From Escherichia phage BB1: DNA of 64,000 nucleotides. The DNA lies in the sequence record NC_106597.1; one strand, written 5' to 3'. Shown piece by piece: positions 3,869 to 35,443 of this stretch. The notes under the pieces were generated by a model. The model searched no databases and was not told the DNA's origin. It worked only from the letters and a program-made list of their open reading frames with translations. The first letter of the stretch is position 1. Each line of letters starts with the position of its first letter. The translations under genes and the position numbers were made by a program.

Positions 3869-3887
3869 TTGTAATCCCCTAATTAAG

Positions 3888-3965
3888 TTGGTGGCTCCCC
3901 GAGGATTCGAACCTACGTACCTTCCGGTTATGAGCCGGGTGCTCATACCATATGAGCTTGAGAAC
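3888..3965 (-). tRNA. tRNA-Met or tRNA-Ile (anticodon CAU)
   Basis: Manual fold: acceptor GGTTCTC/GGGAGCC (with G-U), D-arm GCTC/GAGC, anticodon arm CCGG-CTCATAA-CCGG; T-stem only 3 bp; CCA encoded. Confidence 0.55.
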
Positions 3966-3971
3966 CAAAAT

Positions 3972-4065
3972 CTGGAGGAAGATGCCAGACTCGAACTGGC
4001 ACACCATGTTTCCACAGTTACTGGCTGTTTAGCAAACAGCTCCCTTACCTTTAGGGTTAATCTTC
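3972..4065 (-). tRNA. tRNA-Ser (anticodon GCU)
   Basis: Manual fold: perfect acceptor GGAAGAT/ATCTTCC, 3-bp D-stem, anticodon arm GCTGT-TTGCTAA-ACAGC, long variable arm, T-arm GCCAG-TTCGAGT-CTGGC, CCA encoded. Confidence 0.65.
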
Positions 4066-4087
4066 CGAATTTATAAGATATATTATA

Positions 4088-4609
4088 TTAGAAATTTAGC
4101 TTCATAGCAAGAAAATTTTTCAAGTTTTCGGTAGACATCTCATCTACATCTACAGGAGAAACAAAGCCGTTTAATTTTCTAGCAAATTTTTCACCATCGG
4201 GATCATTGTCTCCAACAGCTACCAATTTAAAAGGTAGTAATTTCAGTTGCTTTAATAACGCTTTTCCTGGAGAAGAACCCAACATTGCTAGGGCTGGATA
4301 ACCAGCGTTATGTAACGCAACTGCCTTAAATACAGATTCAGCAATCAATACTACTTTTTCATCTCCATTGAGAGTTTCTAGTCCCCATACACACTGGGTA
4401 GTAGAATAAGTAAAGTATTTAGCTTCAAAGGGGCACTTACCATGACCTTTTGGAGCAGAAGGATTATAAGTTTGATAGCCCCTCAACATCCCAGAGAAGT
4501 CATACAACGGGACTGTTAGCCATCCTTCTGGACTTAACCAGCAATGATATTTATCTGTATCAAATCCCCTAGATAAGAGGTGCTGTGTTAGCTCATCAAC
4601 ATTCATATT
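4088..4609 (-). CDS. Toprim-domain-like protein (about 173 aa)
   Basis: Conserved-looking E (IAESVF) and DxD (VGDNDPDGEKF) resembling the Toprim fold; start moved to MNVDELTQ with GAGAGGAACC RBS downstream of promoter 4637-4665. Confidence 0.45.
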   Translation of the reverse strand, partial: NMNVDELTQHLLSRGFDTDKYHCWLSPEGWLTVPLYDFSGMLRGYQTYNPSAPKGHGKCPFEAKYFTYSTTQCVWGLETLNGDEKVVLIAESVFKAVALHNAGYPALAMLGSSPGKALLKQLKLLPFKLVAVGDNDPDGEKFARKLNGFVSPVDVDEMSTENLKNFLAMKLNF

Positions 4610-4636
4610 TGGTTCCTCTCTCAAATTTATAGATAT

Positions 4637-4665
4637 ATTATACAGAGAATTTAGCATTCAAGCAA
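4637..4665 (-). promoter_or_regulatory. early promoter (minus sense TTGCTT-17-TATAAT)
   Basis: attata 4637-4642, 17-bp spacer, aagcaa 4660-4665. Confidence 0.6.
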
Positions 4666-4781
4666 TCAAATTTTTTAACTTTTTAGAGGAAAATCATAGG
4701 GCACTTAAGGGTAGCAGATAAGTGGTGAGGACCAAAATTTGTGACCCCACTAAAAATCCGGGGGCAATTTTTAAAGACCCC

Positions 4782-4810
4782 TTGACATTTTCGCTGGGGT
4801 AGTGTAAAGT
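4782..4810 (+). promoter_or_regulatory. sigma70-type promoter (TTGACA-17-TAAAGT) sharing the 13-mer TTGACATTTTCGC with the element at 34512
   Basis: Consensus -35 at 4782-4787; 17-bp spacer; -10-like TAAAGT at 4805-4810. Confidence 0.5.
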
Positions 4811-4872
4811 ATATGTTATGGATGAGTGATCAAAGAGACACACATTTTCTATATACTAGGAGGTGTCAAAAA

Positions 4873-5859
4873 ATGACAGAAGAAGTAGCTAAGAGTCCTG
4901 AGACCGTCGCTAGCGTTGCAGCAGAACTGCACCGTCACGAGGAATCAGATAAGAAAAAGTGGGAGAAGGTCAGAGCCTACGAAGAAAAACATCGTGAACA
5001 CGATGATGAAGAAGATGACGATGATGAACATTGTCATAAATATGGAAAACATAAAATGCAAGAACCAGTAAACGTATTCACTAGTGGCTTCCCTGGCCTA
5101 CTGGGTGGTTACCCAGCAAACGCAGGTGCTTTCGGTGGTGAAGGTATGGGACTATTCGGAGCTATCCTAATCGGTGCTCTATTAACAGGCGGATTCGGTG
5201 GTTTCGGTGGATTCGGTGGACGTGGTGTAGTTGGTGAAGGTACCGCAGTTGATGCGGTACTTCAGAACCAAGATACCGCTAGTATTCTAGCAGCTATTAA
5301 CACTACTCGTACAGAAGCTAATCAGGGTACTGGGGCTGTGTTAAGCGCAGTTAACAATGGTTTTAGCCAGACATCCCAAAACCAGAGCCGTGATACTCAG
5401 TCTGTACTAACTACGATTTATGGTACAGGTGCTAATCTGTCTAATCAGATCTGCCAGGAAACTCGCAACGTTATTCAGGGTCAGTTCGATCTTTCTCGCC
5501 AGATTGATCAATCTTTCGCAGCTAACCAGATAGCTCGTGCACAAGATAAATTTGATTCTGCACAGATCGCTTTCCAGCAGACTTTACAAACTAATAACCA
5601 GTTTGCCGCTGTTCAGGCTCAGATGTGTGCTAACCAGAACTCTCTGGAACGTCAGATCGCTGAATGTTGCTGTGAACTTCAGACTGCGATCGCTGGTGTA
5701 ACTACTGCGCGTATCCAGGATGAGTTAGATGCATGTCGCCTACGTGAGGCAATCGCTGCGGGTAATGGTGCTAACGGTCAGGTAATTAATCAAATCGCTG
5801 TAAGTCTTGGTGCAATCACTCAGACTCTGGCTGGTCTGCAGGCTAAACTGCCGGCTTAA
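4873..5859 (+). CDS. low-complexity protein: acidic/His-rich N-terminus, Gly-zipper hydrophobic segment (GGFGGFGGFGG), Q/N/S/T-rich C-terminal region
   Basis: AGGAGGTG RBS 7 nt before ATG at 4873 (track ORF starts earlier at 4813); by eye GC and codon choice look higher than neighbours. Confidence 0.6.
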   Translation: MTEEVAKSPETVASVAAELHRHEESDKKKWEKVRAYEEKHREHDDEEDDDDEHCHKYGKHKMQEPVNVFTSGFPGLLGGYPANAGAFGGEGMGLFGAILIGALLTGGFGGFGGFGGRGVVGEGTAVDAVLQNQDTASILAAINTTRTEANQGTGAVLSAVNNGFSQTSQNQSRDTQSVLTTIYGTGANLSNQICQETRNVIQGQFDLSRQIDQSFAANQIARAQDKFDSAQIAFQQTLQTNNQFAAVQAQMCANQNSLERQIAECCCELQTAIAGVTTARIQDELDACRLREAIAAGNGANGQVINQIAVSLGAITQTLAGLQAKLPA

Positions 5860-5880
5860 TATTAAGGGGAGGAGCCCATT

Positions 5881-6297
5881 ATGAGTAAATATGGTTTTGT
5901 AAATAACGGACTTAATCAAAGTATGGGCTCCCAGCAGCCCATTCCGGGTCTGGATAACCCCTACTTACAACAGTTGCAACAGCGTTTAGCAGAAGCGCAA
6001 CAGATGCAGCAACAACTCCAGCAAAACCCTGGAAGTGTGAGTCCTATGCAAATGATGCAGCAAATGAGCGGGCAGTCGCAAATGCCTCAACAAATGCAGC
6101 AACAGGTGCCTCAGCAGCAAGTTCAGCAACAAACCCAACAACCGCAGGTTTCTGCGGAAGGACAGGCAGTACTAGCCCTTTTCGAAGACTTCGCAAAGAC
6201 AGAGGATGGGAAACAGCTTGTATCACTTATGGGTAAGTTTAATAGCTTCTGCCAAAGCCAAGTTGCAAAAGCTCAAAATGGGGGTAGTAACTCCTAA
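5881..6297 (+). CDS. glutamine-rich low-complexity protein (138 aa)
   Basis: GGGGAGGAG RBS; long poly-Q/QM stretches. Confidence 0.55.
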   Translation: MSKYGFVNNGLNQSMGSQQPIPGLDNPYLQQLQQRLAEAQQMQQQLQQNPGSVSPMQMMQQMSGQSQMPQQMQQQVPQQQVQQQTQQPQVSAEGQAVLALFEDFAKTEDGKQLVSLMGKFNSFCQSQVAKAQNGGSNS

Positions 6298-6306
6298 GGA
6301 GGAAAT

Positions 6307-6501
6307 ATGTGTTGCAGAAAATCTGTTTCGTGCTGCCCAATGCCTGTAGCACGTTGTTGCTCTCCAGCAATGTTTACACAAATACCGGCGTTCAATCCCT
6401 TTGCCTTTAAGCCTACTCTTATCCTGCCCCCTAGAGTAGATTTTCAGTCAAGATTGGCCTCCCGTATGGGTGGTTGCTGTACACCGAGAGTATGGTTCTA
6501 A
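6307..6501 (+). CDS. small Cys-rich protein (64 aa, four CC dipeptides)
   Basis: TAAGGAGG RBS 5 nt upstream of ATG; followed by intrinsic terminator. Confidence 0.45.
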   Translation: MCCRKSVSCCPMPVARCCSPAMFTQIPAFNPFAFKPTLILPPRVDFQSRLASRMGGCCTPRVWF

Positions 6502-6511
6502 ACCAAAAACA

Positions 6512-6548
6512 AAAGCCCCTGCCGAAAGGTAAGGGGCTTTTTCTTTTG
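6512..6548 (+). terminator. rho-independent terminator
   Basis: Hairpin aaagcccct...aaggggcttt followed by T-run. Confidence 0.65.
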
Positions 6549-6556
6549 CCTTAAAT

Positions 6557-6592
6557 ACAGAAAAGCCCGCGCTCTCGTAGGAAACGCGGGCT
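6557..6592 (-). terminator. rho-independent terminator (minus sense), downstream of SPFH gene
   Basis: GC-rich hairpin gcccgcg...cgcgggc with T-run in minus sense. Confidence 0.55.
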
Positions 6593-6616
6593 TGGTTCGA
6601 AGATTACGTGTAACTA

Positions 6617-7564
6617 TTACTTGTTACGCATATCCATGATCATTTGACCATCGTAGCCAGTACCTACCACAGTCTGAGGTACACCACCTTGATACTTCTG
6701 AGCACGGATCATTTCAACTTCCAATTGCTTCCAACGAATCATCTCAGGAGTAATGGTACGTTGCAATGCGGCGTTAGCTTCAGCTTCTTTCTTAGCTGCG
6801 TACAGTTTAGCATCTGCGTCACGTTCATTAGCAATAGCTTGGTTGTTACGAGCTTCACGATCTGCTTCTGCTTGTTTAACTTTTTGCTGTGCTTCCTGTT
6901 CAACGCGAGCAAGTTCAGCTTTCGCAGCATTAACTTGCTCTTCACGAACTTTGGTATTCTGTACCTGTTCCATGATTACTGGCGGCAAAGTAATATCCTG
7001 AAGGAACACCTGCTTAACTGTGTAACCATATGGGCGTGCATACTCTTCAACTTCCTGTTGAATTGCAGTTTGCAATTGAGCCTGAATTTTAGCATCAAAT
7101 AAATCTTGTGCTTTAGGTACAGACTTACCAAACTCACGAATAGTAGACAGTAATTTTTCAGTTACATACTTGTCTAGTGCCTGATCCTGAGTACCTGCGT
7201 TAATACGGTTAATCGGTGCTTTAGAACCATCAAACTGCAACATAACAGTCAGGTCAACAGTGGATTTAAACTTATCCTGGCTAGGAACCTGAAGTTTATC
7301 TAATTTTACAGCAATATCTTTTGTACTAAAAGTATCGAAAGATGCAAACGGGTTTACAAGATGGAAACCCGGCAATACTGGATTAGGGTCTACTTTACCC
7401 AGGAATGTTTGGGTTTTAACCGTACCATCAGAAACAATAGTATATGAATTAAAAGCTAGGATTAAACCTGCTAAACCAACTACAGCACCAATACCCCAAC
7501 GTTTAATAGTACGAATTACTTTCTGCTCAGAAGTCAGTTCTTTCATATTTTTAGTAGCAAACAT
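6617..7564 (-). CDS. SPFH/band-7 (prohibitin/HflK-HflC-like) membrane protein
   Basis: N-terminal TM helix (IGAVVGLAGLILAF), SPFH-like core, C-terminal Ala/Glu-rich coiled coil; AAAGGAAAT RBS. Confidence 0.75.
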   Translation of the reverse strand: MFATKNMKELTSEQKVIRTIKRWGIGAVVGLAGLILAFNSYTIVSDGTVKTQTFLGKVDPNPVLPGFHLVNPFASFDTFSTKDIAVKLDKLQVPSQDKFKSTVDLTVMLQFDGSKAPINRINAGTQDQALDKYVTEKLLSTIREFGKSVPKAQDLFDAKIQAQLQTAIQQEVEEYARPYGYTVKQVFLQDITLPPVIMEQVQNTKVREEQVNAAKAELARVEQEAQQKVKQAEADREARNNQAIANERDADAKLYAAKKEAEANAALQRTITPEMIRWKQLEVEMIRAQKYQGGVPQTVVGTGYDGQMIMDMRNK

Positions 7565-7598
7565 ATATTTCCTTTGTTTTAGTTACAGTTAATAAAAT

Positions 7599-7673
7599 TG
7601 GCCGAGGTGACAGGATTCGAACCTGCATAAAGGAATTTAGAAGACTCCTGCCTCTCCCTTAGACTACACCCCG
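7599..7673 (-). tRNA. tRNA-Arg (anticodon UCU)
   Basis: Manual fold: T-arm GCAGG-TTCGAAT-CCTGT, anticodon stem with loop rc of ttagaag, acceptor pairs with one G-U, CCA encoded. Confidence 0.7.
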
Positions 7674-13218: not shown

Positions 13219-13668
13219 TTAATTTATTAACTGTAAGCTTCTTTTAATTTCAGACCTTACCTGCATCAAAAGAACTCCTAAAGTATTGTCCCCGATGCCT
13301 CGGCAAACACCCCAATATGTATCTCCCCAGGTATTTCCTTCGATCAAAGTTACATTTTTTGTTGCTAACAGTTTGTCTCTCAAATCAGGGATTGCAAACT
13401 TTAACCGTAAAAGCTCTAGCATTACATCATCTTTTACCTTATCCCAGTCAGAGCGTAGAGTTAATTTACGTCCTCTACGTTTGGCAACTCCTGCATTTAG
13501 GGAGCGTAGTACATGAGCTACATCATCTTTTTGGTCGGATTTCATAGCCTGAAAAGCATGTTCTACAGTATCAGCATGCCATATTTCATTTAGATATTCG
13601 AAAGTAATTGGTGATAAGTAAAAGTTAGATAAAAAACTATAAGTACCTTTAAATTCAGTAATCTTCAT
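13219..13668 (-). CDS. NADAR (YbiA-like) family protein
   Basis: Motifs YSFLSNFY and EHAFQAMK characteristic of the NADAR/DUF1768 family. Confidence 0.7.
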   Translation of the reverse strand: MKITEFKGTYSFLSNFYLSPITFEYLNEIWHADTVEHAFQAMKSDQKDDVAHVLRSLNAGVAKRRGRKLTLRSDWDKVKDDVMLELLRLKFAIPDLRDKLLATKNVTLIEGNTWGDTYWGVCRGIGDNTLGVLLMQVRSEIKRSLQLIN

Positions 13669-20962: not shown

Positions 20963-21037
20963 AAATAACACTCCTATAGTGTACTTCGCTAACAGAGGAT
21001 CAACAAAAAGATCTTGTTTATCAACTTACAAATATAT

Positions 21038-21066
21038 TATACCAATATATACAGTAAAAAGCAACT
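21038..21066 (-). promoter_or_regulatory. early promoter upstream of phoH (minus sense TTGCTT-17-TATAAT)
   Basis: attata 21038-21043, aagcaa 21061-21066. Confidence 0.6.
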
Positions 21067-21177
21067 ACAATTTTAAATAAGCCTATGATATTGCATTTAA
21101 ATAAAAAATTTGCTTGCTTTTAATGGAAATGTATGGTATTAGATAATCATTTTATACCGCGTACATAGGCGCGTGAT

Positions 21178-21206
21178 TATACTATTTTAAGTACAAAATA
21201 GCAAAT
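21178..21206 (-). promoter_or_regulatory. second early promoter in divergent region (minus sense TTGCTA-17-TATAAT)
   Basis: attata 21178-21183, tagcaa 21201-21206. Confidence 0.55.
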
Positions 21207-21275
21207 AAATTTTTTAACAATTTGCTAACCTTTTAGCACAGATCAAAATACAATATCTAAGAGAAAAATTATATT

Positions 21276-21304
21276 GACATCCGCCCTCGAATGAGTTATA
21301 ATAG
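21276..21304 (+). promoter_or_regulatory. consensus sigma70 promoter (TTGACA-17-TATAAT) upstream of nrdD
   Basis: Perfect -35 and -10 hexamers with 17-bp spacer, about 28 nt upstream of the nrdD start. Confidence 0.7.
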
Positions 21305-21331
21305 TAGTCTTAGTTAGAGAAGGAGGGTGTA

Positions 21332-23206
21332 ATGAATCGTAATGAAGAACTAAAATATAAAGAAATGCAGGCGTTAATTAGAAACTGCAAAGAGATTATC
21401 GAAGGGTCAGCAGACGAAGAACTGCTATTTAATAATGCCAATAAACCCTCAGAACGTTTCCCTACACAAAGGGATATGCTTGCAGGTGAATTGAGTAAGT
21501 ATCTAATTCTAGAAGAAATGCCGATTCAGATTCGAAATGCCCATATGATTGGGGATATTCATTTCCATGATGCTGATTATGCTGCATTAGGTATGACTAA
21601 CTGTTGTCTGGTAGCTCTGGAAGATATGTTGAAGAATGGTATGAAAGTTGGTAATGCTGAAATTAGCACTCCAAACTCTATCACTACTGCGGCGGCTATT
21701 ACTGCTCAGATTATCACTCAAGTTAGCTCCCATCAGTATGGTGGTACTTCTGTAGATCGCCTTGATGAAGTATTAGCCCCTTATGTTCGTAAATCCTATG
21801 ACAAAAATCATGCGTTTGCAAAACGTTGGACTAAGGATGAAGCCAAAGCATCCGTAATGGCTACGGAGATGACTGAGAAAGAAGTCTATGACGCTTGTCA
21901 GGGTTTAGAATATGAAATCAATACCATGTTCAACTCTAATGGTCAGAGTCCATTTATTACCTTTGGTTTTGGTCTAGGAACTTCCTGGGAAGCACGTCTA
22001 GTACAGAAAGCAATACTGAAAGTACGCATGGATGGCTTAGGTATCAATAAACGTACAGCTATCTTCCCGAAACTGGTATTTGTTCTGCGTGATGGCGTAA
22101 ATATGAAACCAGGAGATGTTAATTATGACATCAAGAAGTTAGCTATGAAATGTACTGCTGAACGTATGTATCCAGATTATATCAGCTATGACAAGGTTGT
22201 AGAAGTTACTGGAGACTATAAAGTTTCTATGGGCTGCCGTTCATTCCTAGCTGCTACAGAAGATGGTGAAACTGCTGGTCGTAATAACTTAGGTGTTGTT
22301 TCTGTAAACTTGCCTAGAATTGCTATCGAAGCTGAAGGAAATATTGATCTATTCTTTGATTTGCTTGAGCTACGTGTGGATACAGCGTTAAAAGCATTGG
22401 AGTGGAGAGTTGATCGCTTAAAATACATCCAAGCTAAAGCTGCACCCATCCTCTATATGTCAGGAGCCTTTGGGTTACGCTTGGAGCCTGATGAATATGT
22501 ATTCGATCATTTCTATAACCGTGCTTCTGTATCTCTAGGGTATATTGGTTGCCATGAAATGCTACAGTTCATGTTTGGCAAAGATGTAGACACAATGTCC
22601 GAGACCTGCATCAAGTTTGTTCAGCGTGTATTGCAGTACATGCGAGATAGGGTCGATCAGAAGAAGGAGGAGACTAAGTTAGGTTATAGCCTGTATGCTA
22701 CACCGTCGGAATCCCTATGCGATCGTTTTTGTCGTCTAGACCGTGAATATTTCCCGGAGCATGAAGATATTCTGTCCAAAGGATACTACACTAACTCTCA
22801 CCACCTTGATGTGGAACGTAAAGTTGCTCCCAATGTGAAATTTGATTATGAATCTAACTTTACTCCGATTGCTTCTGGTGGATGTATTTCCTATGTAGAA
22901 CTACCGGATATGAAACGATTCCCAGATGCACTAGAATGGGTTATTAATTATGCTGCTAGTAAAGTTCATTACTTCGGTATTAATACTCCAGTGGATTCTT
23001 GTGGTAAATGTGGATTCTTAGGTGAAACAATAGCATCCGAAGATGGATTTAAGTGCCCTATCTGTGGTAATCATGACCCCGAAACTCTTGAAGTAACTCG
23101 TCGAGTTTGTGGGTATCTTGGAAATCCAGGTGCTCGTCCATTTAACCCAGGCAAACAGCATGAGGTTATGGGCAGGGTGAAACATCAGGATATTCGAGCT
23201 AAATAA
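21332..23206 (+). CDS. nrdD: anaerobic ribonucleoside-triphosphate reductase (class III)
   Basis: C-terminal glycyl-radical motif (RVCGYLG) preceded by Cys cluster (CGKCG...CPICG); AGAAGGAGGGTG RBS. Confidence 0.9.
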   Translation: MNRNEELKYKEMQALIRNCKEIIEGSADEELLFNNANKPSERFPTQRDMLAGELSKYLILEEMPIQIRNAHMIGDIHFHDADYAALGMTNCCLVALEDMLKNGMKVGNAEISTPNSITTAAAITAQIITQVSSHQYGGTSVDRLDEVLAPYVRKSYDKNHAFAKRWTKDEAKASVMATEMTEKEVYDACQGLEYEINTMFNSNGQSPFITFGFGLGTSWEARLVQKAILKVRMDGLGINKRTAIFPKLVFVLRDGVNMKPGDVNYDIKKLAMKCTAERMYPDYISYDKVVEVTGDYKVSMGCRSFLAATEDGETAGRNNLGVVSVNLPRIAIEAEGNIDLFFDLLELRVDTALKALEWRVDRLKYIQAKAAPILYMSGAFGLRLEPDEYVFDHFYNRASVSLGYIGCHEMLQFMFGKDVDTMSETCIKFVQRVLQYMRDRVDQKKEETKLGYSLYATPSESLCDRFCRLDREYFPEHEDILSKGYYTNSHHLDVERKVAPNVKFDYESNFTPIASGGCISYVELPDMKRFPDALEWVINYAASKVHYFGINTPVDSCGKCGFLGETIASEDGFKCPICGNHDPETLEVTRRVCGYLGNPGARPFNPGKQHEVMGRVKHQDIRAK

Positions 23207-23213
23207 GCTAATC

Positions 23214-23246
23214 AGCCAGGTTGCTAGTCGACCTGGCTTTTATTTT
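23214..23246 (+). terminator. rho-independent terminator after nrdD
   Basis: Hairpin agccaggt...acctggct followed by TTTTATTTTATTT. Confidence 0.65.
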
Positions 23247-23248
23247 AT

Positions 23249-23277
23249 TTGCTTTCAGCCAAAAATTTATGTATAAT
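23249..23277 (+). promoter_or_regulatory. early promoter (TTGCTT-17-TATAAT)
   Basis: -35 23249-23254, -10 23272-23277, followed by conserved tttataaatttgagagg leader and RBS. Confidence 0.7.
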
Positions 23278-23305
23278 AGATTTATAAATTTGAGAGGAGA
23301 AAGAT

Positions 23306-23686
23306 ATGGAATTAAAGCCCTATATAGTTGAGTCTACGTGTGGTGGTTTCCATCTTGGTGTAGACGATCTTAGAGAAGCTATTTTTGCATCTACTGGAGA
23401 TTATTCCCATTTAGAGGGTATTGGATATTCATCAATTATTGGTGATTGGGTAGAAACAAATCTAGATGTATCACCGTATAGCTCAGATTGCTTGTTTGAC
23501 GAGGATGAGGATGAAGTAGAACATACTATTGAATTTGTCTATAATAGAGTACTAAAAGTATACCAACGTAGTCCCAAGGGATACGAAGATATTACTAAAG
23601 ATATTAAACAATATCTTAAAGATATATACTCTAGTTTTTCTGACGAAGACCTAGAAACAGTTGCAGTGGAGTTTAATAATGACTAA
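23306..23686 (+). CDS. hypothetical acidic protein (126 aa)
   Basis: ORF with GAGAGGAGAAAG RBS. Confidence 0.55.
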   Translation: MELKPYIVESTCGGFHLGVDDLREAIFASTGDYSHLEGIGYSSIIGDWVETNLDVSPYSSDCLFDEDEDEVEHTIEFVYNRVLKVYQRSPKGYEDITKDIKQYLKDIYSSFSDEDLETVAVEFNND

Positions 23687-23885
23687 GAATGTAAAACACC
23701 TTAAATATCGCTTAATTTACAACGGACGTATGGAAACAGAAGATCTGGCCCAATTAGCTATTAATTCTAATGAGGTTACAGTGCGTGCGCTGGCAATTGA
23801 AAAGTTGCGTGCCTCTTATGAAAATCGTGTTATGGAACTAGAGGAGAAACTTTATGGCATTCTCGAAGCCGATGCTACCAGATAA
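23679..23885 (+). CDS. hypothetical small protein (68 aa)
   Basis: Start set at MTKNVKH with GGAG RBS. Confidence 0.4.
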   Translation: MTKNVKHLKYRLIYNGRMETEDLAQLAINSNEVTVRALAIEKLRASYENRVMELEEKLYGILEADATR

Positions 23886-24075
23886 GGGTTTAAACGCCGC
23901 TTTGGAAAACGCATTAATGCAGCGCTGGGAAACTGGCTATAAGGATGGTGTTGAATCCTGCGCTACTATGCTAGAAGTTATTGCTAATACCTTAAGGGAG
24001 AAAGGCAATAAAGAATTAGCTGAGCTATTAGACAGTATTGGGCAAAACTTCAGAGAACAGGTGAAAAATGCGTAG
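23854..24075 (+). CDS. hypothetical small protein (73 aa)
   Basis: ORF with GAGGAGAAAC RBS. Confidence 0.5.
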   Translation: MAFSKPMLPDKGLNAALENALMQRWETGYKDGVESCATMLEVIANTLREKGNKELAELLDSIGQNFREQVKNA

Positions 24076-24883
24076 ATTAATTATTATTAGCGGTGCAGGT
24101 TTGAGTGTTGAAAGTGGTGTACGAGCTTTTCGTACTGATACTGCTAGTGGTAAAGCATTGTGGGATGATTATGATCTAGAAGAAGTATGTAATATTCATG
24201 CCTTTCGTGGTAATTTTTATCATAAAACCCATATGTTTTACAACAAGCGTCGTGAAGAGCTAAAAACTGTTGAACCCAATCTTGCGCATTTGCGTATTGG
24301 TGAATGGTATAAACAATATCCAGGTCAAGTAGTAAACTTGACTACCAACGTTGATGACCTTATTGAGCGTGCTGGAGTATCAAAAGAAGACATACTCCAT
24401 ATTCATGGGTACCTGAAAGAAATTATAGTAGAGCACGCATTCGACCAGACACGTGATATTATTGATATTGGGTATAGCTCTATTGACCCCGATGACTTTG
24501 ACTGGGTTAAACCTAATGTAATCTTCTTTGGAGAGCATGCTCCAGCGTACAAAACAATGTATGAGATTTTTGATGGCATTACCGGTCAAGATATGATCAT
24601 TGTGGTTGGTTGCTCTAACCAAGTAATTAACTTCTACTGGGAATTATTTCCTGTTCTTAATTTGACTGCTGCGAAACTTATGGTTGTTAACTACTATGAT
24701 AGTGCCCTCGCGGCGGAACCGGGCTATCAAGGTATGACTCGTAGTGAGATGTACCAGCTGGAAGAACGCGGTATACCTTACTGGAGTAAAGGTGCGGTAG
24801 ATGCTTTCAGTGATCCTGATTTTATTGCTCGTGTAGAAGCTCATTTAGAGGGTAGACCCTATGTGTCGGGAAGCAAGAAATAA
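24068..24883 (+). CDS. Sir2 (sirtuin)-family NAD-binding protein, no zinc ribbon
   Basis: Sirtuin motifs GAGLSVESGVRAFR, TTNVDDL, HIHG, PNVIFFGE; no CxxC...CxxC zinc module. Confidence 0.7.
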   Translation: MRRLIIISGAGLSVESGVRAFRTDTASGKALWDDYDLEEVCNIHAFRGNFYHKTHMFYNKRREELKTVEPNLAHLRIGEWYKQYPGQVVNLTTNVDDLIERAGVSKEDILHIHGYLKEIIVEHAFDQTRDIIDIGYSSIDPDDFDWVKPNVIFFGEHAPAYKTMYEIFDGITGQDMIIVVGCSNQVINFYWELFPVLNLTAAKLMVVNYYDSALAAEPGYQGMTRSEMYQLEERGIPYWSKGAVDAFSDPDFIARVEAHLEGRPYVSGSKK

Positions 24884-25036
24884 TGAATGGGATATTTTTA
24901 TAACTGAGTCTGGCACTTGGTGTTATAGGTTTGCCTACAGATTTCCCAGTGTAAGAAAACGGTTGGGATACACGTATAAAATTATCTATACTACTGATAA
25001 TATATGGTTATCATCTGGGGAAGAGGAGAAACAGAT

Positions 25037-25219
25037 ATGTCCATAGTTAAATCTGTGTATACACATCCCGAGGATATATTTGTATGGGCAGATGGTAGTT
25101 GGTGCTATAGATGTGAGTTATGGGAAATGGACTATAAATCTGATGACTATGGTGTCATATATGTTGATACGGTTGAGTATGATACGTTCTTAGAAAGGAA
25201 CAAAAATGGAAATAAGTAA
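25037..25219 (+). CDS. hypothetical small protein (60 aa)
   Basis: Start set at MSIVKSVY with GAAGAGGAGAAAC RBS. Confidence 0.45.
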   Translation: MSIVKSVYTHPEDIFVWADGSWCYRCELWEMDYKSDDYGVIYVDTVEYDTFLERNKNGNK

Positions 25220-25712
25220 TACTCCAATTATTTTTCTAGATATTGATGGGGTGCTCAATTCGAGCATCTCCCACCATCATGCACCTGATGACGAAAAGAT
25301 TTTCTTTGGAAGTGACTGGGTTTTCAAACCGCTTCTCAAGGCTTTTCAGGACTTTATTCGTCCTTCTCCGATAATGATTGTTGGAGTATCCTCATGGTTC
25401 TCTGTCAGGAATGAGATGGAGAACGTTCAGATTATGACCGGATTAGGCCTTATTGATCGTTTTCTTGGTACAACGGATTTTACTGGTGGTGGGCTATCTA
25501 GGGGTAATTCTGTTCTTCGCTTCGTTGAAAAGCACAAGCTCAAACACTGGTGTGTGCTGGATGATGCTGGTGCTATGATGTATCAGTATCCAACAGTTAT
25601 AGTTAATGGTAGAACTGGGATAAATCTTCAAGATTTAAGAGCTGTTAGCTATATGTTAGAATTTAGTCCAGATCTTGAAATGTGTAAAGCCCTACAACAA
25701 TTTAAGGTGTAA
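25206..25712 (+). CDS. HAD-superfamily phosphatase-like protein
   Basis: HAD motif I FLDIDGVLN and downstream VLDD; AAAGGAAC RBS. Confidence 0.65.
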   Translation: MEISNTPIIFLDIDGVLNSSISHHHAPDDEKIFFGSDWVFKPLLKAFQDFIRPSPIMIVGVSSWFSVRNEMENVQIMTGLGLIDRFLGTTDFTGGGLSRGNSVLRFVEKHKLKHWCVLDDAGAMMYQYPTVIVNGRTGINLQDLRAVSYMLEFSPDLEMCKALQQFKV

Positions 25713-25714
25713 AT

Positions 25715-26143
25715 ATGTTCAATAATGTATTTTCTAAAGAAGCTAACCCAATATTGGTTAATTTTTGGCGTACTCTTCCAGCCAACCTGTACAACGAGGC
25801 TATTAATGCTCTGAAAATATGGTGTGAGAATAATGAAATCTCCTTTGCTTTTAAAGGTGAGATTGAAGAGGCTCCCTGTATTGGTTTAATTGTGCAGGTA
25901 GAGGATGGTCTTGAAGAGATTGTCGGCTGGAAAGAGCTAGATGAAATGGGCTTGGTTTTTGCGTTAAACTATAAGCTGTTTATGCCTAATAAACACCGTA
26001 TTGTTGTTAACTATAAAACCAATGAATCTCCTGGTTTTCAAGTTAATGAACATTACGGTTGGTCTTACTCACCGGAAGAGGTAAATGATGGTATCCAGAA
26101 ACTTCGTCGTTTTGGTTATCAGATTCCTGGTTTAACTGCCTAA
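25715..26143 (+). CDS. hypothetical protein, paralog A of a tandem pair
   Basis: Shares pattern PCIG...W.EL.EMGL.FALN..LF.P...Y.PE...L.R.GY.IPGL with 26153-26545. Confidence 0.55.
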   Translation: MFNNVFSKEANPILVNFWRTLPANLYNEAINALKIWCENNEISFAFKGEIEEAPCIGLIVQVEDGLEEIVGWKELDEMGLVFALNYKLFMPNKHRIVVNYKTNESPGFQVNEHYGWSYSPEEVNDGIQKLRRFGYQIPGLTA

Positions 26144-26152
26144 GGGGGCACA

Positions 26153-26545
26153 ATGGAACAAGTATATTGGCGTCAGATTGATCCTAGTTTGGTGAAGCGT
26201 GCGGAGAAGCTGCTACAACGTTGGTTGGGGGTAAGACAAGCCTCCTTCACTTTTCCGGAGCAGCAAATAGACGATCCCTGTATTGGTGTTTTCCTATCAG
26301 GCTACGCTAGGGAATGGGAATTGGATTGGAATGAGTTGTCTGCTATGGGTTTAATTGTTGCACTAAATTTCTCTTTGTTCCATCCACGTGGTTTGGCCAT
26401 ATGTCGTGTGCCTGATGACGGTTGTTCGCCCCATCTTTTACAGGTGGAGGATGATATTTGGGAGTACACTCCAGATATTCTCAAAGAAGCTAAAGAACAG
26501 TTAAACCGTGTTGGGATCTATGTTCCAGGCCTGAATGATGAATGA
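26153..26545 (+). CDS. hypothetical protein, paralog B of a tandem pair
   Basis: Alignable by eye to 25715-26143 over most of its length. Confidence 0.55.
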   Translation: MEQVYWRQIDPSLVKRAEKLLQRWLGVRQASFTFPEQQIDDPCIGVFLSGYAREWELDWNELSAMGLIVALNFSLFHPRGLAICRVPDDGCSPHLLQVEDDIWEYTPDILKEAKEQLNRVGIYVPGLNDE

Positions 26546-26636
26546 TTTTTATTAGCTGAAATTTGTAATCCGGGCTATTAGTGCTCGGATTATTACATAA
26601 TCTTTCCAGTCGATTAACAGTCAAAATAAATTGTCG

Positions 26637-26665
26637 TTGACAATTTGGATGGATTATGTAATAAT
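26637..26665 (+). promoter_or_regulatory. sigma70-type promoter (TTGACA -35) upstream of HNH endonuclease
   Basis: TTGACA 26637-26642, 17-bp spacer, AATAAT -10. Confidence 0.5.
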
Positions 26666-26684
26666 ATATGTATTGGAGGTGAGG

Positions 26685-27137
26685 ATGTCATTCACACAGC
26701 AAGAACTTTTAGATAACTTCCGATATGAAGATGGTAAGTTATTTAGAACTACAGGAAGAAATGCAGGGAAAGAATGTTGTGTTTCTACGGGTAACGGATA
26801 TTATCGTATATCTCTAGGGAATAGGACTATGCTTCGGCATAGAGCAATATTTTTAATGCATCATGGATACTTACCTGATTTAGTAGATCATGTGAACACT
26901 ATAAAAGGTGATGATCGTATTGAAAACCTTAGAGAGCAGACAGTATCTGGTAATCTAAGAAATATCAAATATAAGAAAGGAATGCATGTTTACCCTTCTG
27001 GTAGTAAGAACTGGCAAGTAGTATTTACTATTAACCGTAAACGTATAGTTAAAGGAACATATGACAACTATGAGGTTGCATGTTCTATGGCCAAGATGTT
27101 TAGAGGTCAATTATACGGTAGGGAATCAATCCAGTAA
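26685..27137 (+). CDS. HNH homing endonuclease (HNH_3 + AP2-like DNA-binding domain)
   Basis: HRAIFLMHHGYLP...VDHVNTIKGDDRIENLREQT motif; start set at MSFTQQ after GGAGGTGAGG RBS. Confidence 0.8.
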   Translation: MSFTQQELLDNFRYEDGKLFRTTGRNAGKECCVSTGNGYYRISLGNRTMLRHRAIFLMHHGYLPDLVDHVNTIKGDDRIENLREQTVSGNLRNIKYKKGMHVYPSGSKNWQVVFTINRKRIVKGTYDNYEVACSMAKMFRGQLYGRESIQ

Positions 27138-27145
27138 AATTTCAT

Positions 27146-27175
27146 TTGCAAGGGAGTATTATTTTATAGTATAAT
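27146..27175 (+). promoter_or_regulatory. early-type promoter (TTGCAA-18-TATAAT) without an adjacent ORF
   Basis: -35 27146-27151, -10 27170-27175; followed by degenerate leader and no start codon for about 500 nt. Confidence 0.5.
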
Positions 27176-27672
27176 ATTCCCATAAATGAGAGACATTAGT
27201 AAAAATTGATTTTGCTAATTTTTCTTGTTTACAATCCGCGATACGGAACAGTTAGGCTGCCCCATTAAGGGTTGTTTTAACTGTTACGTGTTAGTTTTTA
27301 AACAAATAGTTAATAGAATACTTAGCGATCTGCGTCCCGTAGGAACCCTGGTAAGGCCTCGAAGCAACCTAGATAGAGGTGGTTGTGAAGTGAGACGGGA
27401 GGAGTGAAAAACTCCGAGACGTGATTCTGTAAGTTATATTGCATCTAGTATGAGCTAGTATATGAAGCATTAGGTGAGCAAATCTGGCTTAGCGGCCATC
27501 CTCAAGGATTTGTGCGGTATAGCAAAGCAGCAGCGCAGCGTGAAAGTGGAAGTTGCCACCCCACTTCAGTATTTGCAATTAATTTGTTGAGAAATTGACA
27601 GTAACAGTTGTTCTATTCTTTCTGAATAGTCCTAAAGAAAACTTATTTCATTTCCAACACAGGAGTATTGTT
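27176..27672 (+). other. long untranslated segment; candidate structured RNA or regulatory leader
   Basis: About 500 nt without a credible RBS+ORF, several GC-rich hairpins (e.g. ggagt-gaaaa-actcc at 27401-27415), GC-richer than typical intergenic DNA here. Confidence 0.3.
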
Positions 27673-30459
27673 GTGTTTTCAATCCTACAAGGTCATGCAG
27701 GATTTCATCGCGATTTAGCCACAGGCAATTGGCGAGAAGTTAAGGCAGAAGATTATCTTTTTGCTAAAAGATTTTCCTCAAAGCATCCTGAAGGTAAACC
27801 AGCTTCAATGCCCTTCAAGTTTGATGTAATTGATGAAGTTGATCCTCAAACCCTAGTAGAAATGCTTCCTCTTATGAGACGTTTAACGTCTGACCCTCAT
27901 ATCGTTGCGGTACGAGGTCGATGTCTTGCACCTAAAAATAATGTGCGACGTAAGAAGGGCAACTTTAATGTATCTAACCCAAGTCATATAATTGCAATGG
28001 ACGTGGATGGTATTGTAGATACAGGTGGTTGTAACAAGTTTGATCTTGTTGGCATGGCTCGACATATTATTAGGATGTTAAATAGTATTAGTGAGGATAT
28101 GTTTCCTCTTGATGCAGGGTTTATTGCTCATGCATCGTCTTCGGCCGGACTAAAACCAGGTATCCGAATGCACTTAATACTAGAATCTAATGTTAAAGTA
28201 ACTCAGGGTCAAATCAAATTCTTATTTACATCTATCAACGAAAGTAGTAGACAAAAGTATGGCTTTGATATTGCCGACTTAGCTTATTACTCTTCTGTAC
28301 AGCTCCATTACTTTGCAGATCCTTTATTTATTGATGGTATAGTTGATCCGTTTAAAGCGGAGGGTGCTTCACGTCTGGTATTTGTTAAAGGCTCAAAAGT
28401 AAATTTACCTAATAATCTAGTTGACTATGAAACAACTAGAGGAGAGTTTAAAGAGGAATTCTACTCCCTACTCGATCAAATTAAAGGTAAAAAAGCTGCC
28501 TCTGATAAAGTAGAAGAAACCATCAGCGAATTAGAAGAAGCTGAGGATGGTGTATATCTACGTATTATTCCTAAACTCTATCACCGAGCACTAGAGGATG
28601 GTGTAGATTTTGGCTGGCTAGAGAAGGAGATCCGCCCAGCTTTATCTGAGTATATTGCAACTAAAGATAATAGTCGTAATATTCAAGATTACTTTAATAA
28701 CGGTCGAAAACAGGCTCTGAAAGCATTTGTTAATAATTCTAAACGTGATATACCTGATGTTTTAAAAGGTATTCCGCTTAAAAAGCTAGAAACTAACTCT
28801 CTAGAAACAGATAATTTCCTGAAATTAAACACTGTACCACCAGAAGGTTACATGACTTTTGTAAAAGCAAGTCTAGGCACAGGTAAAACCACGGCGGTTG
28901 TGCGTTGGTTAGATTCAGGGGTTATTAAAGGTAATTTCTTAGCAATTACCAATACTAGAGCACTGGTATCTTCAAATGCCAAGAAATTTAGTGCAGGACA
29001 ATATGATAAGTCTGTAGATATGCTTAATTTTAAGCGTGGTGCTATTGACCGTATGTCCACAACTATCCACTCTTTACATAAGTTTAAGAGTTTTATTGGC
29101 CAAATTGATGCAATCTTTATCGATGAATGTGATGCAGTAATGAATGACCTATTATTCGCCCCGGTTGTTAAGCAACGTCGCGAGTGTATTCAGGTTCTTC
29201 GGGATATTCTTGCAACTGCGAAAATAATTATATTATCTGATGGGGATATTAGTGCAGAAACAATTGAAGCATATGGTTCTTTGATTGAATTTGATAAACC
29301 GGTCGCATTTTATAATCATCATCGTAAGATGCTGTCAAAAGCTCATGCTTATGAGTTCCCTGATGAATCCAGTATTTGGGTTGCACTCCAGACTTCTCTA
29401 GAGATGGGTGAGAAATCTATTCTAGTATCTGATTGTGGTCCTGATGAGCTGAATGAGAAGGGTATGGCACTGCGTCGTAATACGGGTGCGTTAGTTAAGG
29501 AAATCCATTCAAACTCCACCTCAGATGTGGATATTCGACGTATTCTGGATTATACAACTAATGAGCTAATTGATCAACAAATTGATTGCTTATTATGTAG
29601 TCCATCCGTAACGAGTGGCGTTGACTTTAACTATTTCGATAATGTATTTGTTATTACTAGAACCAGTAATCAAGCGCCAAACATGCGTTTTCAAGCAATC
29701 AGGCGCGACCGTGGTGCTCAGAATATCTATTATTTTATTGATAAATCTACGAGTGGATTCTCCGCAGGTTCTGAACAATATAACATTGATGAAGGTTGGC
29801 TGGAGTTAGCACAGCAATTATACGCACGTCGCAGGGAGCTGGAATCTAGGAACTATACTAGTACTTTACGTTATTACTTGCTTGATCAGGGTGCAACTAT
29901 TGATATTTTCAGCGAAAGCTGGGGAACTATTGAAGGTGCTGGTAAAGAATATACAGAAGAGCGAATCAAAGCTATTCTGCATTCAACTCCAGATTATTGT
30001 GCTCCACGTCATGCGGATGCATATGAAGCTAAACTACTTCTTGTTCGCTATTACCATCTTGAGTCTATTAAAGATGTAACAGTTGAGCATGTTGAACAAT
30101 ATATCAAAGATAAACCAAATGATCGAGCTGCATTCTTCCATAAGATGCACGAGATGTTCTGGGAAGACATTAAGAAGTGTTCAAATGTAACCATTAAACC
30201 ATTCATAGAAGCTCTGAAAGGTAAGAAGAAAGACTTCTTCCTTAAAACAGGTCAGAGTGCTAACCCAAAATATGCTAGAATGTATCTTGGTATGATGGGT
30301 ATTGGTAAGGATATGAACACTGAAAATATCGTAGACTGGTACAGAACCTATTGTAAAATCGAATGTATGCCAATTCCTTTCAAATTCATGACAGAGGAAG
30401 AGAAAGCTATGGCAGAAGAAGTAATGTCCGAACTTGGAGCAACTAATGAAGATGCATAA
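27673..30459 (+). CDS. putative primase-polymerase (AEP-like N-domain) fused to P-loop NTPase/helicase
   Basis: N-terminal IIAMDVDG and SSSAGLKPGIRMHL resemble AEP motifs; Walker A LGTGKTT, Walker B IFIDECD; start set at GTG 27673 7 nt after AGGAG. Confidence 0.6.
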   Translation: MFSILQGHAGFHRDLATGNWREVKAEDYLFAKRFSSKHPEGKPASMPFKFDVIDEVDPQTLVEMLPLMRRLTSDPHIVAVRGRCLAPKNNVRRKKGNFNVSNPSHIIAMDVDGIVDTGGCNKFDLVGMARHIIRMLNSISEDMFPLDAGFIAHASSSAGLKPGIRMHLILESNVKVTQGQIKFLFTSINESSRQKYGFDIADLAYYSSVQLHYFADPLFIDGIVDPFKAEGASRLVFVKGSKVNLPNNLVDYETTRGEFKEEFYSLLDQIKGKKAASDKVEETISELEEAEDGVYLRIIPKLYHRALEDGVDFGWLEKEIRPALSEYIATKDNSRNIQDYFNNGRKQALKAFVNNSKRDIPDVLKGIPLKKLETNSLETDNFLKLNTVPPEGYMTFVKASLGTGKTTAVVRWLDSGVIKGNFLAITNTRALVSSNAKKFSAGQYDKSVDMLNFKRGAIDRMSTTIHSLHKFKSFIGQIDAIFIDECDAVMNDLLFAPVVKQRRECIQVLRDILATAKIIILSDGDISAETIEAYGSLIEFDKPVAFYNHHRKMLSKAHAYEFPDESSIWVALQTSLEMGEKSILVSDCGPDELNEKGMALRRNTGALVKEIHSNSTSDVDIRRILDYTTNELIDQQIDCLLCSPSVTSGVDFNYFDNVFVITRTSNQAPNMRFQAIRRDRGAQNIYYFIDKSTSGFSAGSEQYNIDEGWLELAQQLYARRRELESRNYTSTLRYYLLDQGATIDIFSESWGTIEGAGKEYTEERIKAILHSTPDYCAPRHADAYEAKLLLVRYYHLESIKDVTVEHVEQYIKDKPNDRAAFFHKMHEMFWEDIKKCSNVTIKPFIEALKGKKKDFFLKTGQSANPKYARMYLGMMGIGKDMNTENIVDWYRTYCKIECMPIPFKFMTEEEKAMAEEVMSELGATNEDA

Positions 30460-33489: not shown

Positions 33490-34461
33490 ATGACTAATGT
33501 AAAAGACTTTATTAAACGCTGTCAAGAAGCATATTATCAAGGTATGTCTTTAATCTCTGATGAGGAGTATGATTGCCTGGTAAAACGCTTCCCATTAGAA
33601 GAAGAGATCGGACCTAAGGGTGATATTCCACATCTATATCGTATGTATTCTTTACAGAAAGTTTATTATAATCGTGGAGATAAACCCCCATTCAACCCAT
33701 TAGGTCAGGTAGAAACTGATAAGTTAGATGGTTGTGCGATTTCTCTGTTATATATTAATGGAGAATTTGTTCAAGCACTAACTCGTGGCAATGGTATTCT
33801 GGGAAATGATGTCACAAGCAACGTAAGATTGCTGAATATCCCTAAAAAGATTTCCCAAAAAATACCTACTCAAATCACTGGTGAAGTTCTAATTACAAAA
33901 GAAGTAGAAAATAAACGTAACTTTGCCTCTGGTGCTATTAACCTCAAAGATAGCGATGATTTCGTACAGCGTATCGGGGAAGGTGGTTTAATCTTCGTCG
34001 CATATGGCATTCAGTGTTCTGCTGAATCTGTAGGTATTACAGAAGCATATTTAAAAGATATGCTTTGGCTGGAGAATGAGAACTTCTTAACAGTTGTTAA
34101 TGTACGTTCCTTCTTTAAATGGATTCCGACGGACGGTAAAGTTGTTCGTATTAATGACAACAACAAATTCTTCCGTGAAGGCTGGACTAATAAATTCCCT
34201 CGCGGGGCGTTCGCTATTAAAGAGGATGAAGAAGGCGAGATTACAACTCTTACTAAAGTTGAATGGCAGGTAGGGGCTTCTGGTAAAGTAACTCCAGTTG
34301 GTTATTTCGAACCGGTAATTATTGATGATGCTACAATTGTTAAAGCGACTCTTAATAACGTTGATTATATTAACTCTCTCGATCTAGAGATCGGTTGCCA
34401 GATTCGAGTGATTCGTGCTGGTGGTGTAATCCCGTGCATAGTAGAGCGAGTATACGATTAA
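33490..34461 (+). CDS. ligA: NAD-dependent DNA ligase, N-terminal (adenylation/OB) subunit
   Basis: KxDG adenylation motif (ETDKLDGCAISLLY), TRGNGILGNDVT; ends before the zinc-finger/HhH/BRCT part. Confidence 0.8.
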   Translation: MTNVKDFIKRCQEAYYQGMSLISDEEYDCLVKRFPLEEEIGPKGDIPHLYRMYSLQKVYYNRGDKPPFNPLGQVETDKLDGCAISLLYINGEFVQALTRGNGILGNDVTSNVRLLNIPKKISQKIPTQITGEVLITKEVENKRNFASGAINLKDSDDFVQRIGEGGLIFVAYGIQCSAESVGITEAYLKDMLWLENENFLTVVNVRSFFKWIPTDGKVVRINDNNKFFREGWTNKFPRGAFAIKEDEEGEITTLTKVEWQVGASGKVTPVGYFEPVIIDDATIVKATLNNVDYINSLDLEIGCQIRVIRAGGVIPCIVERVYD

Positions 34462-34660: not shown

Positions 34661-35443
34661 TTGATGAAAATCGAAATTCCAACACAATGTCCCTCTTGTG
34701 GTTCTAAGCTAGATCTTGTCAACGGACAATTATTCTGTCGGAATAAGTCCAACTGTCCAGCGCAATCAAGCAAGTTAATTGAGAACTTCTGTTCAAAAAT
34801 GAAGTTAAAGGGCTTTGGCCCAAAAACTATTGAGAAGCTGGAGCTGACGAAGATTTCAGAACTATTTTACCTAACCGAAGAAGATTTGGTTAGAGCCGTG
34901 GGTAGCAAGGTTGCCGCTAAGTTAATTAGCGAATTAAATACTAAAGTTCGCGGAGACATTGACTTTGGTTCAGTTCTCGGTTCTTTAGGAATCCCTCTAA
35001 TTGGAGAGGTTGCAGCAAAGAAATTATCCCAAAATTGCACTAGCTTCCATGATGTGAAGGCTGACGGCAAGGCTGGAGAAAATTATAAAGCCTGGCTAAA
35101 TTCCCCACAAGGCAAGGATGTTATCGAATTACCGTGGAAATTTTCAACTGGTATTAAGGGCACTAAAGCTGACGTCATCATTACAGATGAATTAGTTGCC
35201 CAGCCAAATGGAATCGCGGTATGTATTACCGGATCTTTGCAAGATTTTGCAAATCGAACGGATGCAACAAACTATTTAGAAAGTCTAGGGTATACGGTTA
35301 AGAAATCCGTTACCAAAGACGTCAAATACCTAATCTGTGAGGATGAATCGAAGCGTTCTTCCTCATCTTATAAGAAAGCCGAAACGAATGGGATAGAAAT
35401 CCTGTCGATTAAAGAACTATTGGAGAAAAATAATAATGTCTAA
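34661..35443 (+). CDS. ligB: NAD-dependent DNA ligase, C-terminal (Zn-finger/HhH/BRCT) subunit
   Basis: Cys4 zinc finger (CPSCGSKL...CRNKSNCPAQ), HhH-like GIPLIGEVAAKKL, BRCT-like C-terminus. Confidence 0.8.
   Translation: MMKIEIPTQCPSCGSKLDLVNGQLFCRNKSNCPAQSSKLIENFCSKMKLKGFGPKTIEKLELTKISELFYLTEEDLVRAVGSKVAAKLISELNTKVRGDIDFGSVLGSLGIPLIGEVAAKKLSQNCTSFHDVKADGKAGENYKAWLNSPQGKDVIELPWKFSTGIKGTKADVIITDELVAQPNGIAVCITGSLQDFANRTDATNYLESLGYTVKKSVTKDVKYLICEDESKRSSSSYKKAETNGIEILSIKELLEKNNNV

Follow-up and report, generated by a model that had tools for sequence, protein, structure and literature searches.

A zinc-free CobB-like sirtuin in an early gene cluster of the T5-like Escherichia phage BB1 and its possible part in RNA-end repair

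We have analysed a sirtuin gene and its neighbours in Escherichia phage BB1 (sequence record NC_106597.1), using a stretch of 64,000 nucleotides (nt), hereafter the window, to which all coordinates refer. The gene, at 24068-24883 on the plus strand, encodes a protein of 271 residues. Judged by its sequence and its predicted fold, this protein is a diverged zinc-free sirtuin of the class III (CobB-like) type and not a SIR2 protein of the defence type. The window is that of a T5-like phage (Tequintavirus), and the cluster that holds the gene is the early accessory operon T5.100-T5.107. Together with a HAD phosphatase encoded in the same cluster, the sirtuin may form a module that transfers ADP-ribose to RNA phosphate, an explanation that we prefer tentatively and with less than even confidence. 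The feature is already known from the near-identical phages T5 and SP15, and the window adds no new example of it.

A sequence-only reading of the window had reported a protein with the Sir2 core motifs but without the CxxC...CxxC module, next to a phosphatase and a pair of duplicated genes. This observation of a zinc-less Sir2 protein and its neighbours is correct and lies far beyond chance. The translation of 24068-24883 contains all four motifs, GAGLSVESGVRAFR, TTNVDDL, HIHG and FFGE. Pfam SIR2 (PF02146) matches residues 9-186 (E 2.3e-23; 83.5 bits, where the cut-off is 24) and is the sole Pfam report for the protein, and phrog_2162 matches its full length (residues 1-267, E 1.3e-116). The sirtuin has two cysteines in total and no CxxC, and no CxxC occurs in any of 120 homologs. 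Because the motif is absent from all of these homologs, the clade in its entirety has lost the zinc ligands. Accordingly, no Cys4 zinc ribbon of the form CxxC...CxxC is present in the small domain, although a beta module is still predicted there.

In an alignment of 45 clade members, GAGxS (GAGLS), F21-R22, N94, D96, H113-G114 and F153-F154-x-E156 are invariant. Y58 and R61, which a HMMER alignment places opposite Y92 and R95 of CobB, are also invariant in the clade; mutant names in the titles of PDB entries served as a check on this numbering. The Y-x-x-R pocket, by which class III sirtuins bind the acidic acyl group, is thus kept, and such a pocket would fit any anionic group. On the one hand, the phage sirtuin is alike to CobB, SIRT5, Sir2-Af1 and Sir2-Af2, the closest solved sequences and folds, with which it has in common GAGxS, the F-R loop, the N/D residues, the His, the FGE loop and Y-x-x-R. 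In the PDB, the closest sequences are those of E. coli CobB (E 7e-18), Archaeoglobus Sir2-Af2 and SIRT5. On the other hand, it differs from CobB and the class III sirtuins in several respects: the zinc cysteines are missing, Thr takes the place of the Gln of TQNID, V-I-N-F takes the place of the V-x-P substrate staple, and the clade is confined to phages. Its scores are also below the family cut-offs, since NCBIfam lists only CobB-type deacylase models for it and the best of them reaches 97.6 bits against a cut-off of 243.

The predicted structure leads in the same direction. An AlphaFold2 model made from the alignment of the 45 clade members has a predicted local distance difference test score (pLDDT) of 90.6 and a predicted TM-score (pTM) of 0.88, and it shows a Rossmann core. 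The model keeps a three-stranded sheet at the usual place of the zinc ribbon (residues 114-122, 129-133 and 147-151). The top Foldseek match of the model is CobB (E 6e-17, target TM 0.84). In the fold-comparison list, Sir2-Af1 has a figure of 21.3, followed by PfSir2A, SIRT1, SIRT4 and SIRT2 (18.9-17.8), SirTM (14.8) and SIRT6 (14.4), and the defence SIR2 proteins stand at 12.6 for Sir2-HerA, 12.3 for ThsA and 9.5-9.7 for Avs-type SIR2.

The sequence-only reading had likened the protein to the NADases and ADP-ribosyltransferases found, among other places, in bacterial defence systems. This likeness did not hold up, considering that structure prediction and comparison with ThsA and the like favour CobB and Sir2-Af1, that no family among the PADLOC defence models matched at E<=0.01, that Pfam SIR2_2 gave no match, and that the three-stranded module, the usual holder of zinc, is still predicted in a form devoid of cysteines. 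The defence SIR2 NADases (ThsA, DSR1/2, Sir2-HerA and Avs-SIR2) do resemble the phage sirtuin in having the Sir2 Rossmann core and no canonical zinc ribbon. However, the phage sirtuin has no fused or adjacent SLOG, HerA, pAgo or STAND domain, its neighbours are phrog_5116, HAD and DUF7415 genes, and its fold is not closest to that of the defence SIR2 proteins. Therefore, the earlier interpretation was partly right: it was sound on the parts, which it fairly described as a small NAD- or nucleotide-centred module, and wrong on the family analogy. It also offered no proposal for the purpose of the module, although a prediction of RNA repair had already been published for phage SP15, which is 93% identical (PMC9503650).

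Zinc-less sirtuins of this kind are carried by more than 1,000 sequenced phage genomes, among them T5-like, rV5-like, phAPEC8-like, KVP40-like and jumbo phages. In 2016, Skliros et al. (PMC5107563) described the zinc site as missing from the sirtuins of KVP40-like Vibrio phages, listed T5 among the sirtuin-carrying phages and proposed a deacetylase role. The BB1 protein is an ortholog of T5.102 and of SP15 gp120, a 'Sir2-like protein' (PHROG 2162) of the same clade without zinc cysteines, whose gene stands in the same order, including the HAD gene of the Swiss Army Knife (SAK) type. Iyer, Burroughs, Anantharaman and Aravind described this neighbourhood of sirtuin and SAK-type HAD (the type 3 configuration) in SP15 in 2022 (Viruses 14:1977; PMC9503650), and they predicted that the phage sirtuin is KptA-like and removes 2'-phosphates from RNA. 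Our literature searches found no experimental study of a phage sirtuin.

The HAD gene (25206-25712, plus strand, 168 residues) is the ortholog of T5.105, and its assignment as a HAD-type phosphatase in the sequence-only reading is well supported. The protein matches PF18143, HAD_SAK_2, named 'HAD domain in Swiss Army Knife RNA repair proteins' (E 4e-20; 73 bits, where the cut-off is 27.5), and it has the catalytic motifs I (D12-x-D14) and IV (D119-D120). It was said to lie immediately downstream of the sirtuin, but its start is 323 nt further on, and two phrog_5116 open reading frames (ORFs; 24861-25046 and 25037-25219) intervene. As in the HAD domain of T4 Pnkp and in HAD_SAK_2, it is a small cap-less HAD with a DxDG motif I, from a family tied to the healing of RNA 3' ends; unlike the T4 Pnkp domain, it stands alone, with neither a kinase nor a ligase attached. 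Sequence searches detected no solved relative. Distant homologs occur in T4-like Proteus and Aeromonas phages, and their gene context gave no pointer.

The phage sirtuin comes from class III (CobB-like) stock; the four zinc cysteines have been lost, whereas the NAD+ pocket, the catalytic His and Y-x-x-R remain. The mechanism that we tentatively favour would run as follows. The enzyme would split nicotinamide off NAD+ and pass the ADP-ribose to a macromolecule, at an anionic oxygen. According to the model of Iyer et al. (2022), this oxygen would be part of the 2'-phosphate of RNA, chiefly transfer RNA (tRNA), left after a host RNase has cut with a cyclic-phosphate end. The SAK-type HAD may then take off the remaining terminal phosphate, or it may dephosphorylate the ADP-ribose by-product. 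The sealing would fall to a host enzyme, since neither an RNA ligase nor a kinase is encoded in T5-like genomes. Such a module would be useful conditionally, against defences that cleave RNA, and dispensable on a laboratory host. The likeness to KptA/Tpt1 concerns the proposed chemistry only, in which NAD+ is consumed, ADP-ribose goes to an RNA phosphate and there is a genomic tie to RNA-end-healing enzymes (PMC9503650); KptA/Tpt1 has an unrelated fold of the ADP-ribosyltransferase superfamily, and we found no sequence similarity between it and the phage sirtuin.

Several observations fit this RNA-phosphate mechanism. The HAD family is named after Swiss Army Knife RNA repair proteins, and the bank of tRNA genes, 10 of which lie in the window, fits a conflict over tRNA integrity. 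In a CRISPRi-ART knockdown screen of T5, the one functional dataset for these genes, T5.102, T5.103/104, T5.105 and T5.106 were scored 'Not Fit' (PMC11879866); the absence of a fitness defect for T5.102 and T5.105 on laboratory E. coli fits a conditional role. Of the cluster's genes, only T5.107, the second DUF7415 gene, was among the 17 'Fit' genes of the screen (score -2.90, p 0.0215).

A link with RNA repair also comes from other phages. For 62 IMG/VR loci that carry the sirtuin gene, we counted the partners up to 8 kb away from it. An RNA ligase is present in 11 of the 62, a kinase in 12 and cREC in 8, and the HAD is found in 28, all of them among the 31 loci of Demerecviridae type. Raoultella phage Ro1 has, in this order, metallophosphoesterase, HNH, further genes, RNA ligase, cREC_REC, P-loop kinase, Sir2 and ATP-dependent DNA ligase, and in the jumbo phage PBECO4 the order is Sir2, a Nudt16-like Nudix, cREC_REC, a membrane protein and PIN-PhoH. 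The context of RNA-end healing is solid for the rV5-like lineage and the jumbo phages. In T5-like phages it is only suggestive, the single pointer being the family assignment of the HAD.

A number of points weigh against the transfer of ADP-ribose to RNA phosphate. We know of no sirtuin for which a phosphate has been shown to serve as the nucleophile. Sequence and model are just as compatible with an ordinary lysine deacylase, for which CobB is the best match and the His and the FGE loop are kept; since NAD+ is activated by one set of residues whichever acceptor is used, a phosphate acceptor and an acyl-lysine acceptor are not separable by sequence or model. The clade is acidic (median isoelectric point 5.17), unlike typical RNA-end enzymes, which is weak evidence and speaks mildly against direct RNA binding. 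RNA ligase and HAD were found together in none of the 62 loci, so that the two contexts never co-occur. The neighbours in phage 7-11 and in phAPEC8-like and KVP40-like phages gave no RNA-repair signal, and tblastn searches (E<=0.01) of the whole SP15 genome and the window found no RNA ligase, polynucleotide kinase, cREC, Nudix or MazG. In addition, genes in such tightly packed early regions can be neighbours by chance. Finally, 'Not Fit' is weak evidence, because the same screen also scored the D2 replication gene as Not Fit (PMC11879866).

The alternative that deserves most attention, doubtful as we hold it, is that the sirtuin is an ordinary zinc-independent, NAD+-dependent lysine deacylase (deacetylase or desuccinylase) that removes acyl marks from host or phage proteins early in infection. 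It might, for example, reactivate acetylated enzymes or reverse an inhibition based on acetyltransferases, and the HAD and the other genes would then be unrelated neighbours. The best PDB matches (CobB at E 7e-18, Sir2-Af2 and SIRT5), the exclusively CobB-type deacylase models in NCBIfam, and the invariance of the catalytic His, the F-R cofactor loop, the FGE loop and the class III Y-x-x-R are all in keeping with a deacylase, as are the three-stranded small domain that is still predicted and the role proposed for the Vibrio phage orthologs (PMC5107563). The same NCBIfam scores, however, are far under the family cut-offs (97.6 against 243), the zinc ligands are missing clade-wide, and both the Gln of TQNID and the V-x-P staple are replaced, by Thr and V-I-N-F. 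A deacylase also leaves unexplained why RNA ligase, cREC, kinase, Nudix and SAK-type HAD keep recurring with the sirtuin in three separate phage lineages.

Two further roles appear improbable to us. The sirtuin could be a free NADase, or an ADP-ribosyltransferase acting on protein or DNA, that serves host takeover or superinfection exclusion in the manner of the Thoeris, DSR or Sir2-HerA effectors or of SirTM. Sirtuins in general are capable of ADP-ribosylation, an early-type promoter drives the gene, zinc is absent, and a NADAR protein is encoded about 10 kb away (13219-13668). Against these stand the lack of a PADLOC or SIR2_2 match, the stand-alone form of 271 residues with neither a sensor domain nor a linked macrodomain, and the harm that NAD+ depletion would do to a phage with its own split NAD-dependent DNA ligase. 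SirTM in particular is alike as a sirtuin that may transfer ADP-ribose instead of deacylating, but the phage cluster has no operonic macrodomain partner; a SirTM-like toxin-antitoxin pair was rejected, as no cluster ORF contains a macrodomain. We give still less credence to a small-molecule role within the surrounding block of nucleotide metabolism (td, frd, nrdAB, phoH and nrdD). Here the sirtuin would carry out a CobT/CobB-like phosphoribosyl transfer followed by dephosphorylation, or a recycling of nicotinamide mononucleotide or ADP-ribose, and DUF7415 would be an accessory or adaptor of enzymes for deoxynucleotide (dNTP) synthesis. The cluster directly follows nrdD in 32 of the 62 loci, Jiaodavirus T4-like phages encode a single-domain relative of DUF7415 between nrdD and nrdG, one fusion of DUF7415 to thymidylate kinase exists, and CobB was first found through a phosphoribosyltransferase-like function (earlier work cited in PMC9503650). 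Yet this amounts to a single fusion and to gene positions in gene-dense early regions; class III sirtuins have no established small-molecule activity beyond the genetic observation on CobB, and the Pfam family of the HAD points to RNA ends. A pathway of NAD+ reconstitution was also rejected: NARP3 corresponds to PnuC/NadR-like genes of phage Bas30, and none is present in the SP15 annotation.

Returning to the RNA-phosphate module, a more far-reaching form of it, which we regard as rather unlikely, would make the protein the first sirtuin to act on a nucleic-acid phosphate. By ADP-ribosylation it would remove or cap the terminal phosphate or 2'-phosphate of cleaved tRNA and, in T5-like phages, form with the HAD and a host ligase a minimal counter-defence against immunity that cleaves RNA, in which the DUF7415 pair would be a partner or regulator of new fold. 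The chemical idea is a published prediction; the dependence of T5-like phages on a host ligase and the role of DUF7415 would be new, if true. If NAD+-driven RNA-end repair does take place, sirtuin chemistry would be extended to nucleic acids, and a counter-defence against tRNA-cleaving immunity would be added in phages with wide use in therapy and biocontrol. If the protein is simply a deacylase, it would show that the zinc module is dispensable.

The cluster itself likely forms one transcription unit, read from the sequence as nine plus-strand ORFs between 23249 and 26593. The sequence-only reading had placed the genes behind one early promoter; the single unit stands, but three ORFs upstream of the sirtuin (23306-24075) also appear to belong to it. 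The cluster more likely starts at a probable sigma-70 promoter, TTGCTT-17-TATAAT (23249-23277, plus strand), than at the perfect consensus promoter at 21274-21302. The former was read by eye and its assignment is putative; its -35 hexamer matches at 3 of 6 bases only and hence was unlisted by the promoter scanner. The latter serves nrdD, and a strong intrinsic terminator at 23214-23238 (plus strand; a 10-bp stem with 6 GC pairs, followed by TTTATTTTAT) then separates nrdD from the cluster and marks the upstream boundary of the unit. Framed by this TTGACA-17-TATAAT promoter and the terminator, nrdD looks like a separate transcription unit.

Behind the promoter lie an acidic ORF of 126 residues (23306-23686; phrog_11748 by profile match, ortholog of T5.100), an ORF of 68 residues (23679-23885; phrog_5236, ortholog of T5.101), whose start codon was picked by comparison with SP15 gp122, and an ORF of 73 residues (23854-24075; phrog_5827), which overlaps the start codon of the sirtuin by 8 nt. 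The last of these corresponds to SP15 gp121 and is not in the T5 annotation, where there is only a 55-nt gap. The gene order is otherwise the same as that of T5.100-T5.107 in the T5 re-annotation (gene numbers from supplement file 8 of PMC11879866), so that apart from this one extra small ORF ahead of the sirtuin there is no difference of substance from T5. The sirtuin is followed by the two copies of phrog_5116, of 61 residues (24861-25046; ortholog of T5.103, E 5e-24, with a GAGGG ribosome-binding site upstream) and 60 residues (25037-25219; ortholog of T5.104, E 1.7e-29). After the HAD gene come two DUF7415 genes, a (25715-26143, 142 residues, ortholog of T5.106) and b (26153-26545, 130 residues, ortholog of T5.107). 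An 11-bp hairpin at 26565-26593 (plus strand) is the probable 3' end of the unit; the RNA fold of 26540-26640 has -24.7 kcal/mol and a z of -3.0, and the U-tract is weak, so a terminator role is presumed from the fold.

The two DUF7415 genes had been taken for diverged duplicates, and this is confirmed: both proteins match PF24187 (E 3e-32 for a and 1e-31 for b), each has two copies of the 53-residue domain, and the identity between them is 31% (E 1e-19). Among 1.84 billion representative proteins, a profile search picked out 128 DUF7415 clusters, about 22 of them full-length, and most have only the C-terminal core of about 55 residues. This core occurs as a stand-alone protein of 77 residues between nrdD and nrdG in the Jiaodavirus T4-like phages (L008 3980-4213), and it is fused to thymidylate kinase in one representative protein (P0206). 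These relatives give thin hints that point to nucleotide-metabolism enzymes rather than to the sirtuin. The phrog_5116 copies are a second tandem paralog pair, with the common motif DIF-x3-G-x-WCYR. The family is found downstream of the sirtuin in T5-like phages, in Klebsiella phage Sugarland and in the unrelated phage 7-11 (E 5.8e-17). As an obligate partner of the sirtuin it was rejected, considering that in Ounavirinae it adjoins the DNA polymerase gene where there is no sirtuin. Both pairs are co-transcribed with the sirtuin and may perhaps not belong to its pathway.

The remaining counts for the 62 loci describe how constant these partners are. DUF7415 is present in 31 loci, in three of them without the HAD, and the HAD never occurs without DUF7415. 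Sugarland shows such an order, with nrdD, Sir2, phrog_5116, two DUF7415 genes and a terminator, but no HAD. No tested partner was found in five loci, and KVP40 has no clear partner next to its sirtuin. In phage 7-11 and phAPEC8-like phages, a phrog_757 gene annotated as 'DNA methyltransferase' lies upstream of the sirtuin. This gene is present in 11 of the 62 loci, 0-2.7 kb upstream (phAPEC8-like and 7-11-like; loci L048-L053, L058, L062, L063, L066, L069 and L070, and also L006 4304-5008), and its protein has no Pfam match and no solved relative.

The 3.9 kb around the sirtuin cluster match 445 phage records, and Escherichia phage SP15 (Tequintavirus, Demerecviridae) is 93% identical in DNA across the full 3.9 kb. 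The sirtuin has 86-98% amino-acid identity to many T5-like phages and 98.5% identity to its counterpart in Salmonella phage PS3-1, and for the HAD and the second DUF7415 protein the identity reaches 100% in Salmonella phage vB_Si_CECAV_FGS029. In records based on RefSeq and PHROG (e.g. NC_048627.1 gp118), the HAD gene is named 'Sir2 (NAD-dependent deacetylase)'. This mislabelling arises because phrog_18062, which spans the C-terminal 92 residues of the HAD, bears that name, and it therefore leads to the 'Sir2 x2' entries in many T5-like records.

Upstream of the cluster are td, frd, nrdB, nrdA, phoH and nrdD, which is the usual T5 early region; downstream are the D2 origin-binding helicase and the split NAD-dependent DNA ligase, encoded by two ORFs at 33490-34461 (adenylation and OB) and 34661-35443 (HhH and BRCT). 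Because the phage encodes this ligase, it needs NAD+ for its own replication. The NADAR domain protein mentioned above (149 residues, minus strand, PF08719, E 1.6e-21) lies on the strand opposite to the sirtuin and is another gene of the NAD/ADP-ribose network, possibly a remover of ADP-ribose. A scan of 21000-28000 with Rfam showed no RNA elements. The 10 tRNA genes of the window (405-7673, minus strand; Lys, Asp, Asn, Cys, Trp, Glu, Tyr, Leu, Ser and Arg) are part of a tRNA bank of T5 type, with a T5orf172/GIY-YIG-like ORF in their midst (1834-2325). An HNH endonuclease gene within 26637-27137 (HNH_3, E 3e-11) separates the cluster from the D2 helicase gene; it has its own promoter TTGACA-17-AATAAT (26637-26665), a GGAGG ribosome-binding site and a probable ATG at 26686. 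The HNH gene is absent from some relatives, whose matches to the region end at about 26560.

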